Assembly: GCA_963706445.1 (NCBI GenBank)
Contig: OY970160.1
Location: 1,696,001 to 1,760,000, forward strand
Length of the DNA stretch: 64,000 nucleotides
Direction: 5' to 3'
DNA from: an uncultured Nitrososphaerales archaeon
GTDB lineage: Archaea > Thermoproteota > Nitrososphaeria > Nitrososphaerales > Gagatemarchaeaceae
This document shows positions 11,077 through 15,103 of the stretch, piece by piece. The translations under genes were made by a program, and so were the position numbers. The notes below the pieces were generated by a model, which was given only the letters and a program-made list of their open reading frames with translations, was not told the DNA's origin and searched no databases. Numbering within the stretch: the stretch's first letter is position 1; every line of letters begins with the position of its first letter.

Positions 11077-12543
11077 CTACCAGCGGGAAATCGTTACCTT
11101 GCGGTCGGTGAAGAAGTCAACCGAGTCCGCCTGCGGGTGCAGGACCCCGAAGAACGATTCGCGCATCCCCCCGAACGGGAAGTAGGCCGAAGGGGCCGCC
11201 ACCCCAATGTTAATCCCGATGTTCCCGGCGCGGACCCGCCTTCTGAACTCTCGCGCCTGTCCTCCGTCAGTGGTGAAGAGGCTTGCCATGTTTCCAAACT
11301 TCGTCCTGGTGTTTATGGTGTCGATGGCTGCGTCCAGACTGTCTACCTGCATTGTGCTGGCAACAGGGCCGAATATCTCCTCCTTCGCGATGGTCATTTC
11401 GGGGGAGACACCGTCGAAGACCGTGGCGCCCAGGTAGTAGCCGTCGGGATATTCCTGGACCATGGCGCCCCGCCCGTCGCTGACCACCTTGGCTCCCTCG
11501 TCGATGCCCTTCTGCAGGAGGGACTCGATCCTTTCCTTTGCCCTTTTCGAGACCACGGGCCCCATTTCGGTCTGCGGAGAGAGGCCGTTGCCGACCCTGA
11601 GTGCCCCAGCGATTCTTGAGAATTTTTCGATGAGCTCTTGCTTGACGGGACCGACGGCCAGCAGGTTCGCTCCCGCGAGGCGGCGCTGCCCCGTGTTGCC
11701 GAAGAATGAGGAGACAATAGCCGGGACTGCGGTGTCTAGCCTCGCCTCCTTCGTGACCACTATGCTGTTCTTCGCCCCTCCGTTCGCTATAGCTCGCTTC
11801 CCCGCCTCCCCTGCGAGCCGGTAGACCGTCTTTGCGACAGGGGTCGACCCGACGAAGGTCACACCTCTGACGCTATCGTTCTTGATGAGCGACTCCACTA
11901 CTTCAGCGCCGCCGTGGACCATGTTGAACACACCTGGAGGAAGCTTTACCTCATCGTGGATGAGTTCGGCCATTCTCTGCATGGGGACCGGAGTTAGATC
12001 GCTGGGCTTGACGACCACGGTGTCGCCGAGCACGATCGCATACGGAAGGAACCAGAACGGGATCATCAGTGGGAAGTTGAAGGGGCATACGATTGCGAAG
12101 ACCCCCAGTGGCTCCTTGGTGGTCTGGGTGTCCACCCCCTTTGAAATCTGGTCGATGTTGGAGCCCTTCGCATTGGTGTAGGCTAAGGAGATCGCAGCCT
12201 CCACGTTCTCGATTGTCCTCCTCACGTCCCCTCGGCTTTCTGTCAGCGTCTTGCCGTGGTTGAGGGTGTTCAGGGTAGCGAGCTCTTCGGCGTTGGCTTC
12301 CATCACCTCCTTGAGCCTGAAAAGGTACTGGACCCTTTCCCCGACCGTCGTCTCCTTCCAAGCCTCGAATGCGCCTGCCGCAGCAGAAGTTGCACGACCG
12401 ACCTCCTCCTTGGTGCTGAACGGGATTTGGGCAATCTGCCTCCCCTCGGCAGGATTGAAGATCGGACGTGACTCCCCAGACTCGGATACGACCCAGTCCC
12501 CCCCGATCAGGAGCTTCAGTTTGCCGAAATCTTGCGATGGCAC
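11077..12543 (-). CDS. mmsA: CoA-acylating (methyl)malonate-semialdehyde dehydrogenase (IolA/MmsA); the catalytic Cys position reads Arg
   Basis: PFNFPLMIPFW, KPS, FVGSTPVA, GGAKN, EEIFGPV, FPFGG motifs; GQRRLA instead of GQRCLA; start GTG 12543 inferred from an upstream TATA-like element. Confidence 0.85.
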   Translation of the reverse strand: MPSQDFGKLKLLIGGDWVVSESGESRPIFNPAEGRQIAQIPFSTKEEVGRATSAAAGAFEAWKETTVGERVQYLFRLKEVMEANAEELATLNTLNHGKTLTESRGDVRRTIENVEAAISLAYTNAKGSNIDQISKGVDTQTTKEPLGVFAIVCPFNFPLMIPFWFLPYAIVLGDTVVVKPSDLTPVPMQRMAELIHDEVKLPPGVFNMVHGGAEVVESLIKNDSVRGVTFVGSTPVAKTVYRLAGEAGKRAIANGGAKNSIVVTKEARLDTAVPAIVSSFFGNTGQRRLAGANLLAVGPVKQELIEKFSRIAGALRVGNGLSPQTEMGPVVSKRAKERIESLLQKGIDEGAKVVSDGRGAMVQEYPDGYYLGATVFDGVSPEMTIAKEEIFGPVASTMQVDSLDAAIDTINTRTKFGNMASLFTTDGGQAREFRRRVRAGNIGINIGVAAPSAYFPFGGMRESFFGVLHPQADSVDFFTDRKVTISRW

Positions 12544-12630
12544 CGGCGATTCAGGGGCATGAAAGTGGGTAATAAAGCTCGGAGCCTCCCTGCAAAACTT
12601 CATTACTCGTCGCGCCTTTCTGTCGGTGAC

Positions 12631-12906
12631 TTGACAGAGGTGCGTCAGGCCCACATGCCAGGGAACTACGAGCTCTACAACCAGGCTTCGAATAGATTGG
12701 GTCCGACGATCTGCAAACACTGCTGGGAGGAGGACGAGAAGGAGAACCCGGGACCTCTCAACACTGTGTGGGTGACATCTGGAGGACGGCAGATGGTATG
12801 GTGGCTCTGCGCAGGCTGCACCGAGTCGGTCAGAAGTGGGGACGACGAGTCAGTCAGATTCGTGAAGAGCACCCGGGGCCTGATTGCGTCTCCCAGATTC
12901 AACTGA
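12631..12906 (+). CDS. Small hypothetical protein with two CxxC pairs (putative zinc finger)
   Basis: CKHC...CAGC; fills the gap between flanking genes; start uncertain (TTG 12631 or ATG 12655). Confidence 0.55.
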   Translation: MTEVRQAHMPGNYELYNQASNRLGPTICKHCWEEDEKENPGPLNTVWVTSGGRQMVWWLCAGCTESVRSGDDESVRFVKSTRGLIASPRFN

Positions 12907-12915
12907 CCGCTTCCG

Positions 12916-14628
12916 CTATGCCGTACCGTACGCTTTCCTTTTGACGGGCGAACCTGAATGACCCTTGAACCGCTCTTCCTCCCAGATGTCGGCCCTTTCG
13001 TGGTAGCCGTACATCTCCCAGTACCCGTCCCGGTAGTCGGGGATCAGCTCCATCCTGTTGACCCACTTGGCGCTCTTCCATGCATAGAGCCCAGGGATGA
13101 ACGGTCTCGCAGGGAACCCCTGTTCGGCGCTGAGAGGCTTGCCGTTCAGTTTGAAGGCCAGGATTGAGTCGTCCTTCAGCGCGTCCTCCAGAGGGACGGG
13201 CGTGGTGTAGCCGTCGGCGCAGTGGAACATCAGCCATTTGGCATCCGGGCTGACCCCGGCAAGAGAAAGGAGCTTGTTGAGGAGAACCCCTTCCCAAGCA
13301 ACGTCCTTGATGCTCCAGCGGGTCACGCAGTCCTGCGTTACGAAAGGCGACAGCATCGTGTATCCGGGCGCTTGGAAATCGTATACCGTCCCGCTATAAT
13401 CCTCTTCCCATAACTTTCGTATCGGATAATAGAAGCCGTCTGGAGTTTCCCAATAATGGAATCTGTTAATCTTATTCAGACTTGGGAAGTCGGACAATAG
13501 CAATCTTACTTTGTCCCCTCGTGCCCGAATGCTGAAAGCGTCTTTGACAGAACCTGGGTGATTGACTACGGCAGCCGGAATCTCCAGCTTCGAGAAGGCC
13601 AAGATGAGTTGGTAAGCAAGAATTTGTGATGAAGTAGTGTCGTCAATGAAATCGCTCCGCCTGTCGTTCCTTCCGGTATAGACAGGTGAGTATCCGTCTC
13701 CCTTGAAGTAGCTGTCCAAGAACGCCCGAAGAATTGGTCTCTTTGAATTCAAAATGAAATCTGGTATCTTCCTGGATTCGGCCTCGTCTCCGCACCAAAG
13801 TTTCAGAGTCCGAGAAAGTTCTCTTGTCTTGCTTGAGGTTACGACAATCTTCCGTAGCGTTCCCCTTTGGTTCCCATAGATTGAGGTTCTCGCGCCGAAC
13901 AGTTCTGACAGGTCCGACCTCAGCTTCTTAATGTCCTCGTCGTCGTCTTCGTTGCTTAGGGAGAATGCCACCCCTCTCCTTTCGCTGTCGGCCCCCGACC
14001 CTTCGGCAACGTACCAACCCAGAACGGAAGCGAGCTTCTCGTCAATCTTCAACCGTTGATTCCCAATCCGGACAAATTCCTGATTGGAAATCTGTCGATA
14101 CTTGGGGAAGAACACATAGTCGCCTAAGTTGAGTTCGTCTGCCCTAGACCAGACCGGAGACGGATTGTCACTGAATGTCTTCTCTCTGCGCCTACTTCGA
14201 GATTTGCCTTCGCCGGGGTGCGCTCTGATGGTGAGAACAGGATGCTCTGGCGTCACCAGGACTGGCGGAAGATAGGATGCCTTTATGCCTACCACATGAC
14301 CATTGTGGGTCCGGTGCACTAGCTTCCGAACCTTATGTTTTAGCCCGTCTCTGCCCACTATGTAGTCTCCAAGCTTGACCTCTTCGATTCCCTTGGGCTC
14401 TGGGTTCGCATAGACCATACTGCCAGGAACTAGGCAATGGAACGACCGTACGTTGCCGTCCTGCGGACGGGTGGTGAGTTGGTCGTAGGAATACTCTTGG
14501 GGGGCGGTGACCAGACCGTCGACCTTGAGCTTCCATTGGCTGGGATCTATCCTCGGGATTCCAAGAGCGGCGTAGATGACGAACTTCTTCCCCCAGACCT
14601 GGTTTGGAGGGAGGGCTTCTTCGGACAA
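12916..14628 (-). CDS. Sulfite oxidase-like molybdopterin oxidoreductase (YuiH/MsrP-like, about 201 aa once spliced) interrupted by an intein
   Basis: Exteins join to ...RSFH|CVTRWS...GYTT.VPL...NGKPLSAEQGFPAR...YAWKSAKWV...GYWE..GYH, the Oxidored_molyb pattern. Confidence 0.92.
   Translation of the reverse strand: MSEEALPPNQVWGKKFVIYAALGIPRIDPSQWKLKVDGLVTAPQEYSYDQLTTRPQDGNVRSFHCLVPGSMVYANPEPKGIEEVKLGDYIVGRDGLKHKVRKLVHRTHNGHVVGIKASYLPPVLVTPEHPVLTIRAHPGEGKSRSRRREKTFSDNPSPVWSRADELNLGDYVFFPKYRQISNQEFVRIGNQRLKIDEKLASVLGWYVAEGSGADSERRGVAFSLSNEDDDEDIKKLRSDLSELFGARTSIYGNQRGTLRKIVVTSSKTRELSRTLKLWCGDEAESRKIPDFILNSKRPILRAFLDSYFKGDGYSPVYTGRNDRRSDFIDDTTSSQILAYQLILAFSKLEIPAAVVNHPGSVKDAFSIRARGDKVRLLLSDFPSLNKINRFHYWETPDGFYYPIRKLWEEDYSGTVYDFQAPGYTMLSPFVTQDCVTRWSIKDVAWEGVLLNKLLSLAGVSPDAKWLMFHCADGYTTPVPLEDALKDDSILAFKLNGKPLSAEQGFPARPFIPGLYAWKSAKWVNRMELIPDYRDGYWEMYGYHERADIWEEERFKGHSGSPVKRKAYGTA
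13330..14436 (-). mobile_element. Intein (369 aa) with LAGLIDADG homing endonuclease
   Basis: Block A CLVPGSMV, block B VTPEHP, EN motifs LGWYVAEGS and LDSYFKGDG, block F VYDF, ends TQD before Cys+1; visibly more AT-rich than the flanks. Confidence 0.93.
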
Positions 14629-14683: not shown

Positions 14684-15103
14684 CTAGGGCTCGTCCTCGA
14701 GCCCTGACAACGTCTCGATCAGCGATAGCGTGCTCTGGAAGACGTCGGTCTGAGTGATACGACCGACAATCTTTCCGTCATCCATCACGAAGAGGCGCCT
14801 GATTTCTTTGGCCGACATGAGCTCCATCGCGTCTCTGATGGTCGCATCCTTTCCCACTGTAATCAGAGGCCTGGATTCGATGACCCCGACGTAGGTCTTG
14901 GAGGGAGATAGCCCCTTCCCGAGGCACCTCCGAATGATGTCCCTTTCCGTCACGACCCCTTCGGGACGACCCTGCCTCTCCACGACAAGGGACCAGACGT
15001 TGTTCTTGATCATCATCTTGATCGCTTCCTCCGCGGTCGCGCTTACGTCCAAGGAGAACACTTTCTTGTCCATGGCGTCTTTGACTTTCAGGGCTATTGG
15101 CAT
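14684..15103 (-). CDS. CBS-pair domain protein
   Basis: KVKDAM, GVVTERDI, IRRLFV.DDGKIVGRIT..D. Confidence 0.9.
   Translation of the reverse strand: MPIALKVKDAMDKKVFSLDVSATAEEAIKMMIKNNVWSLVVERQGRPEGVVTERDIIRRCLGKGLSPSKTYVGVIESRPLITVGKDATIRDAMELMSAKEIRRLFVMDDGKIVGRITQTDVFQSTLSLIETLSGLEDEP

Follow-up and report, generated by a model that had tools for sequence, protein, structure and literature searches.

An Asp-terminal LAGLIDADG intein at the predicted molybdenum-ligand cysteine of a short sulfite-oxidase-fold protein in Nitrososphaerales archaea

Introduction

Can a molybdoenzyme be made from a gene that is interrupted directly in front of the codon for the cysteine predicted to bind the metal, and what kind of element is the interruption? 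The question is raised by a 570-aa open reading frame (ORF) in the DNA analysed here, a window of 64,000 nt (positions 1,696,001 to 1,760,000 of contig OY970160.1, GenBank assembly GCA_963706445.1) from an uncultured Nitrososphaerales archaeon. An initial annotation of this window had proposed that a 369-aa intein splits the motif FH|CVTRWS of a YuiH/MsrP-like protein, which is 201 aa long once the intein is removed. The analysis reported here confirms that observation, with coordinates and counts exact, and supports its interpretation in part. The ORF very probably encodes a precursor in which a mobile, self-splicing LAGLIDADG intein interrupts a short, cytoplasmic molybdoenzyme of the sulfite oxidase (SUOX) fold between His64 and the cysteine ligand of the molybdenum. 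Replication, repair and ATPase proteins make up most of the host range of inteins (PMC4760082), to which a metabolic metalloenzyme would be added.

Gene structure and host enzyme

The ORF is read from a TTG start, and Pfam places Oxidored_molyb on two separate stretches of it (135.8 bits against a Pfam cut-off of 24), with the intein-splicing, Hint and LAGLIDADG_3 models in between. NCBIfam gives the same partition: the outer parts match sulfite dehydrogenase and MsrP models, and the inner part matches intein-containing archaeal proteins. The junctions read ...RSFH|CLVPGS... and ...SPFVTQD|CVTRWS, and the intein comprises codons 65-433; its removal leaves exteins of 64 + 137 = 201 aa. This is the exact length of more than 100 intein-free homologs that read ...RSFHCVTRWS... 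unbroken, and the TTG start and the same 64 residues of the N-extein are common to these homologs. The coordinates of all features are given in Table 1.

The cysteine that follows the intein was placed on known structures with the intein-free allele of a same-genus relative (locus L006). When the whole intein-free protein was compared to the PDB by phmmer, the Cys region was unaligned in the top matches, whereas the N-terminal 110 residues alone aligned it, with vrsfhCVtrWS on yrmrCVeaWS of E. coli YedY (1xdq). Counted along the chain in the 1xdq alignment, the Cys of FHCVTRWS is YedY Cys102; the alignment with chicken sulfite oxidase ends at residue 185, which is Cys185. Both of these residues are established as the protein ligands to molybdenum in this family, and the PDB includes C185S and C185A mutants of the chicken enzyme.

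The precursor was modelled by AlphaFold2 (AF2) from 52 sequences, with a mean predicted local distance difference test (pLDDT) score of 78.6; the junction residues are the least confident part of the model (pLDDT <50). Its exteins match SorA, YedY, SoxC and chicken sulfite oxidase at 1.4-2.2 Å root-mean-square deviation (1.4-1.8 Å for SorA and YedY). Its central part matches the TliVMA intein (7qsu; template modelling score 0.78 over the target), PI-SceI, PI-PkoII and PI-PfuI, and the comparison with solved inteins supports the Hint fold (Foldseek E 1.9e-21).

Because of the alignment and the structural matches of the exteins, the intein is predicted to adjoin the Mo-ligand Cys on its N-terminal side, and that same Cys to be the +1 splicing nucleophile; formation of the mature active site would therefore need splicing. 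On these points the sequence comparisons agree with the initial annotation, which had assigned both roles to the one residue.

Like other short SUOX-fold proteins (PF00174; YedY/MsrP, 1xdq; the B. subtilis YuiH-like 'sulfite oxidase-like oxidoreductase'), the predicted spliced product contains the entire Oxidored_molyb domain, with the Mo-ligand Cys in a C-V-x-x-W-S motif. In contrast to YedY/MsrP, no Tat (twin-arginine translocation) signal was seen, nor a YedZ-like partner among the neighbouring ORFs. No experimental study of the archaeal 201-aa subfamily was found in the literature.

The source genome encodes MoaC and MoeA. It also contains three further, uninterrupted Oxidored_molyb paralogs (G000:C1, 227568-228083, 1395175-1395621 and 1545497-1545940; ORFs of 438, 580 and 550 aa), and no second copy of the short 201-aa form was found in it. 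With these three paralogs and the two cofactor genes, the organism devotes resources to several SUOX-fold enzymes.

The intein family and its C-terminal Asp

A search of 5.8 billion clusters returned about 58 clusters (550-604 aa) with the same architecture and insertion site, at 45-85% identity. These derive mostly from JGI, ENA and Logan metagenomes, with a few NCBI metagenome-assembled genomes (MAGs), and none is informatively named; the named intein-bearing records are the soil 'Thaumarchaeota archaeon' MAGs TA_8 and TA_14 and one uncultured archaeon. An assembly artefact was considered and rejected, since the architecture recurs in other assemblies, in about 58 independent clusters formed at 90% identity. 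The length of the intein is 359-373 aa throughout the family, and no mini-intein or shortened form was found among matches of 313-998 aa, the shorter matches being truncated fragments.

Cys1, T126, H129, D417, D433 and C434 are invariant across 52-58 family members. The hallmarks of class 1 inteins are otherwise present, i.e. Cys1, the block B TxxH motif, Cys+1, the Hint fold and colinear intein-free homologs; the C-terminal His-Asn is the departure, since the window copy ends in Gln-Asp. All 58 members of the family have Asp as the C-terminal residue (D433), preceded by Gln, Leu, Arg or Lys and never by His. By analogy, the Gln-Asp end is best taken as a variant of class 1 and not as an exclusion from it, because published Asp/Gln exceptions still splice (PMC4031507).

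Among inteins in other host proteins, the nearest show no more than 38% identity; their hosts comprise methyltransferases, dCMP deaminase, topoisomerase and many others. About 130 of these related inteins have an alignable C-terminal end; all of them terminate in Asn, nearly all in HN, and many read PF(I/V)VHN|C, compared with SPFVTQD|C in the window. Since the family is entirely Asp-ended while the sampled relatives elsewhere are entirely Asn-ended, the Asp end is derived, specific to this insertion site and fixed, and appears to be kept by selection.

Inteins that end in Asp or Gln splice by cyclising that residue, according to the review by Mills, Johnson and Perler (PMC4031507, citing Amitai et al. 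2004). In those inteins the terminal Asn is likewise replaced by a cyclisable residue (Amitai, Dassa and Pietrokovski 2004, J Biol Chem 279:3121; PMC4031507). The present family differs in that Asp is fixed over about 58 clusters spanning approximately 50% divergence, with the penultimate His lost in addition. To our knowledge, the Asp- or Gln-ended cases described are single inteins. The approximately 58 natural, Asp-ended and His-less variants provide ready comparative material for the poorly understood step of Asp cyclisation, and also for the design of inteins whose C-terminal cleavage is slow or depends on pH.

In its parts and predicted mechanism the element is an ordinary archaeal LAGLIDADG intein. 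It has the same combination of Hint domain and two-motif LAGLIDADG endonuclease as PI-PkoII (2cw7; sequence E-value of the intein 4e-11), TliVMA/PhoVMA (7qsu, 7qss, 7qst), PI-SceI (1vde) and PI-PfuI (1dq3), and the same Cys1, block B TxxH, Asp F:4 and Cys+1 as the solved archaeal-type LAGLIDADG inteins. It differs from the solved inteins in its host, a molybdoenzyme and not a polymerase or ATPase, in its Gln-Asp instead of His-Asn end, and in an identity of less than 20% at fold level.

Splicing, cyclisation of the terminal Asp and endonuclease activity of the window copy are predicted from sequence. The intein would most likely be removed post-translationally by the ordinary four-step class 1 route: an N-S acyl shift at Cys1, aided by the Thr and His of block B; transfer of the N-extein onto Cys+1; cyclisation of the C-terminal residue to free the intein, here by Asp instead of Asn and with no penultimate His to assist; and an S-N shift that finishes the peptide bond. 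Splicing would rebuild SFH-CVTRWS, and only then would the Cys thiol be free for molybdenum, so that enzyme activity would require splicing.

Selection on the host gene and the intein

The ratio of nonsynonymous to synonymous divergence (dN/dS, or omega) was estimated from unsaturated pairs, dS being saturated in all pairs with the window copy. The exteins have values of about 0.08, the splicing domain of 0.08-0.15 and the endonuclease domain of 0.15-0.33, the upper values of the last being due to alleles without the catalytic acids (omega ~0.3). Purifying selection on the exteins and on the splice residues gives indirect support for splicing of the precursor. End branches of the extein tree are no longer for intein-bearing than for intein-free alleles.

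These values bear on the possibility, allowed for by the initial annotation, of a dead gene, with an insert unable to splice and an organism left without this molybdoenzyme. The atypical C-terminal junction, with Gln-Asp in place of His-Asn, and the three other Oxidored_molyb paralogs in the genome would fit such a gene. However, the 570-codon frame is open, the splice residues are all invariant over 52-58 alleles, extein dN/dS is about 0.08 among intein-bearing alleles, and these alleles lack long extein branches; nor is there an intein-free back-up copy of the short form in the genome. We consider a dead gene extremely improbable because of the dN/dS values, the end branches, the presence of MoaC and MoeA and the lack of a second short-form copy. 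The proposal of a live host gene is retained.

One intein-bearing allele of the family (L042; Ga0209237_1004166) has a C-extein that reads 187 aa, compared with about 137, and an extein dN about 5-fold that of its relatives (omega 0.33-0.56), which may reflect a frameshift, a sequencing error, or a host gene in decay around an intact intein.

Empty alleles and patchy distribution

The intein-free alleles in relatives by which the initial annotation proposed to check its claim exist. The C-extein has matches in more than 1000 short proteins. Of the best 120, almost all are about 201 aa long without insert, with up to 96% identity to the C-extein and up to 95% to the exteins as a whole. Some intein-free alleles carry the NCBI name 'sulfite oxidase-like oxidoreductase [Nitrososphaerales archaeon]'. 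In a survey of 201 sampled genomes of the order, the intein was detected only in the source genome and in one genome (G180) of another genus of the same family. An uninterrupted allele was detected in at least 19 of the 201 genomes, four of them of the same genus as the source genome (G082, G147, G168 and G065); the 19 include an unpublished genome (G108; locus L021), which also forms one row of the consensus of the insertion site. Two of the same-genus empty alleles lie at L006:1498-2103 and L007:1309-1914. Pattern-based scans, which are not a census, yielded three true loci in genome contigs and ten in metagenome contigs.

On an extein tree of 162 sequences, the presence and absence of the intein needs at least 13 changes, at least seven of which are forced by well-supported branches, and the window extein lies in a six-row clade with five intein-free sequences. 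The closest intein-free alleles are P0086 and P0087, and the closest intein-bearing alleles P0003 and P0004.

Empty and occupied alleles have the target site TTYCAY|TGYGTNACN...TGG in common, a sequence that specifies the catalytic motif F-H-C-V-T-x-W; such a site fits the rule that inteins occupy the best-conserved portion of a host gene. The endonuclease would cut intein-free alleles at TTYCAY|TGYGTNAC...TGG, and the element would be copied into them by repair (homing), which would account for the patchy distribution among close relatives.

Both acidic residues of the LAGLIDADG motifs (E209 and D311) are present in the window copy, as the initial annotation had noted. Most alleles of the family keep the acids; P0018, P0019, P0053 and L035 have lost both of them, and L043 and L044 a single one. 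Such loss is the decay stage of the homing cycle, as expected. Occupied, empty and endonuclease-decayed alleles among close relatives represent a clean natural homing-cycle system in uncultured soil Thaumarchaeota.

Mobility and age of the element

Between two intein-bearing loci, L005 (of genome G180) and L045, divergence per 100 nt is 4.9 in the upstream flank, 4.6 in the N-extein and 3.4 in the C-extein, and only 0.45 in the intein, where five of 1104 nt differ (Fisher p 1.5e-8). The clean tract continues past the intein for about 20 nt on the N-extein side and about 100 nt on the C-extein side, a pattern that co-conversion would produce. Near-identical inteins in diverged flanks indicate a recent transfer among relatives. 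In an approximately unbiased (AU) test, the extein data reject a well-supported clade of the intein tree (p 0.0024). In the deepest extein clade the intein is about 50% similar, compared with about 38-40% for the extein.

The same two loci share, downstream of the gene, a 1-kb tract (L005:3700-4695) with zero differences, the genomes being otherwise 3-5% apart. This mosaic shows that general recombination is active in these soil archaeal populations.

The insert has a GC content of 0.51, compared with 0.59 for the host gene, and a GC content at third codon positions (GC3) of 0.58, compared with 0.77. The GC3 offset between insert and host is present in 13 of 13 alleles with DNA (0.07-0.22; 0.14-0.22 in 11 of the 13); in L036, from a lower-GC host, the values are 0.39 for the intein and 0.61. 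Low GC as a mark of recent arrival was rejected, the offset being family-wide and the same in all 13 alleles across hosts. The initial annotation had read the AT-rich insert, together with the intact acidic residues, as suggesting a recently mobile element. The AT-richness and the mobility of the family stand, but the AT-richness is no evidence of a recent arrival in this genome, the offset being the same in 13 alleles; the nearest sampled intein is only 86% identical.

Several points weigh against the proposal of a self-splicing, mobile intein. For every family member splicing is a prediction from sequence, and the combination of Asp G:7 with Gln G:6 is catalytically weak in most studied inteins. 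Ordinary recombination could have moved the intein shared by L005 and L045, because the identical 1-kb tract downstream is shared as well. In the reverse AU test the intein data do not reject the extein-tree clade (p 0.18), and both groups compared were picked after the trees had been seen. Intein-free sequences were sampled only around the clade of the window and have no bearing on deeper clades. Finally, with the nearest intein at 86% identity, recent homing into the window's own genome does not follow.

A different history would make the window copy old, vertically inherited and immobile, with an inactive or target-less endonuclease and with the patchiness due mainly to precise losses. It would fit the identity of the nearest sampled intein (86%) relative to that of the nearest empty extein (95%), as well as the correlation between intein and extein divergences (Spearman 0.70). 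The same GC3 offset in all hosts, with the GC of the intein tracking that of the host (0.39 in L036), points to long residence. On the other hand, both catalytic acids are intact in the window copy, precise loss of an intein is rare on mechanistic grounds, recent movement within the family is seen in the L005/L045 pair, the intein and extein trees are incongruent, and the deepest extein clade keeps the intein better than the extein. An old and immobile resident is a real possibility in our assessment, though on balance an unlikely one, and the mobile, self-splicing intein is preferred.

Conditional splicing

Another alternative is a domesticated, regulatory intein, whose redox-, pH- or metal-conditional splicing would gate the maturation of the molybdenum enzyme. 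It may act through a Cys1-Cys+1 disulfide, or through protonation of the terminal Asp being needed before cyclisation. There are precedents for the disulfide route: splicing is under the control of disulfides between catalytic Cys residues in the inteins of Pab PolII and MoaA (PMC3922620) and in mycobacterial DnaBi1 (PMC6195587), the pairs being Cys-3/Cys1 in the Pyrococcus abyssi MoaA intein and Cys1/Cys+1 in Pab PolII (PMC3922620).

The catalytic Cys residues of the present family could likewise form a disulfide, as in the redox-sensitive inteins (Pab MoaA, Pab PolII, M. tuberculosis SufB and M. smegmatis DnaBi1). Furthermore, its host belongs to metal-cofactor metabolism, as do those of the MoaA (molybdenum cofactor synthesis) and SufB (Fe-S clusters) inteins. 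It differs from the redox-sensitive inteins in that the +1 Cys is itself predicted to be a metal ligand of the mature enzyme, and in that the disulfide here is hypothetical.

Within the family, conditional splicing is consistent with the invariance of both Cys1 and Cys+1, with the absence of any shortened form (all inteins seen are of 359-373 aa), and with purifying selection on the endonuclease domain even where the catalytic acids are gone (omega ~0.3). The Asp end, fixed over about 50% divergence against a terminal Asn in all sampled relatives elsewhere, would suggest selection for this chemistry. However, most close relatives are without the intein, and no indispensable benefit follows from it; patchiness and the transfer signature are the pattern of a selfish element; and no extra conserved Cys was identified near the junctions. 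The two catalytic Cys residues are the only candidate pair.

Redox- or metal-conditional splicing, put forward as a possibility by the initial annotation, is a guess by analogy to precedents in other inteins, and we regard regulation of this kind as improbable. Slightly more doubtful still is the specific proposal that the fixed Gln/Leu-Asp end acts as a natural conditional switch, in which Asp protonation or a Cys1-Cys+1 disulfide would hold the precursor and time the exposure of the Mo ligand and the insertion of the cofactor. If true, this would be the first intein to gate metal-cofactor loading of an enzyme via its own nucleophile. The preferred reading is that of an ordinary mobile intein, i.e. 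a new home for a well-known kind of element and no new kind of mechanism.

Novelty and further inteins of the genome

A literature search on inteins with sulfite oxidase, molybdopterin or Thaumarchaeota returned nothing on this site, which does not prove the site undescribed; the text of the Novikova 2016 survey likewise makes no mention of it. The initial annotation knew of no intein reported in this protein family. In agreement with it, no paper was found, but the element is not unique, being present in the approximately 58 unnamed clusters of public metagenome and MAG data. New are the host family and the site, a SUOX-fold molybdoenzyme at its Mo ligand; the uniformly Asp-terminal, His-less C-terminus across a large family; and the coincidence of splice nucleophile and metal ligand.

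A second intein of the same genome, outside the window, lies in a 539-aa NuoI-like 2x[4Fe-4S] ferredoxin-type protein (L002:1093-2712, minus strand, within G000:C1 1385265-1388468). Its junctions read ...DYGR|CVPPDT...ISVHN|CVFCGLCVDACP, and it is a LAGLIDADG intein with a canonical His-Asn end. Its +1 Cys opens the second CxxCxxCxxxCP cluster motif; a metal-ligand Cys at the +1 position is, therefore, not exceptional in this lineage.

Two more ORFs of the genome have LAGLIDADG matches. A DEAD/DEAH-box helicase ORF (L001:1-2526, minus strand; ~283.8 kb of G000:C1) with a LAGLIDADG_3 match probably contains another intein, and a 371-aa ORF (L003:901-2016, plus strand; ~302.9 kb of G000:C1) with a LAGLIDADG match only may be a free-standing homing endonuclease.

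Feature coordinates and gene neighbourhood

Table 1. Features of the intein-bearing gene, in positions of the 64,000-nt window
Feature	Position	Strand	Basis or remark
Precursor ORF, 570 aa	12916..14628	-	TTG start
N-extein, residues 1-64, ends ...RSFH	14437..14628	-	Short sulfite-oxidase-fold (Oxidored_molyb, YuiH/YedY-like) protein
369-aa class-1-type intein with embedded LAGLIDADG homing endonuclease	13330..14436	-	Pfam/NCBIfam, PI-PkoII PDB match, AF2 model
Intein Cys1	14434-14436	-	
Intein C-terminal Asp	13330-13332	-	
Block B T-P-E-H (T126, H129 of the precursor)	14242..14253	-	Both invariant in 52 homologs
Conserved basic loop HPGEGKSRSRRREKTF, N-terminal splicing domain	14173..14220	-	Alignments A1, A3
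LAGLIDADG endonuclease domain, approximate limits	13477..14064	-	PI-PkoII alignment, Pfam LAGLIDADG_3
LAGLIDADG motif 1 LGWYVAEGS, E209	14002-14004	-	Aligned to PI-PkoII motif
LAGLIDADG motif 2 FLDSYFKGDGY, D311	13696-13698	-	Aligned to PI-PkoII motif
Blocks F and G VYDFQAPGYTMLSPFVTQD	13330..13380	-	Asp F:4 is D417; Q432 penultimate, not His; D433 terminal, not Asn
C-extein, residues 434-570, and stop codon	12916..13329	-	Oxidored_molyb match at 431-537
Cys434, first C-extein residue, of the CVTRWS motif	13327-13329	-	Predicted +1 nucleophile and Mo-ligand Cys

The basic loop of the N-terminal splicing domain has the consensus HPGxGKSKSKRRxxTF in both alignments (A1 and A3), is kept in all family members and is modelled with low AF2 confidence; it may be a DNA-contact or DNA-recognition element of the endonuclease.

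The intein-bearing gene is flanked upstream, at a distance of 55 nt, by a gene for a tandem-CBS-domain protein (14684-15103, minus strand) and downstream by an aldehyde dehydrogenase gene (11077-12720, minus strand). The same-genus loci L006 and L007 do not share this CBS and aldehyde dehydrogenase neighbourhood.

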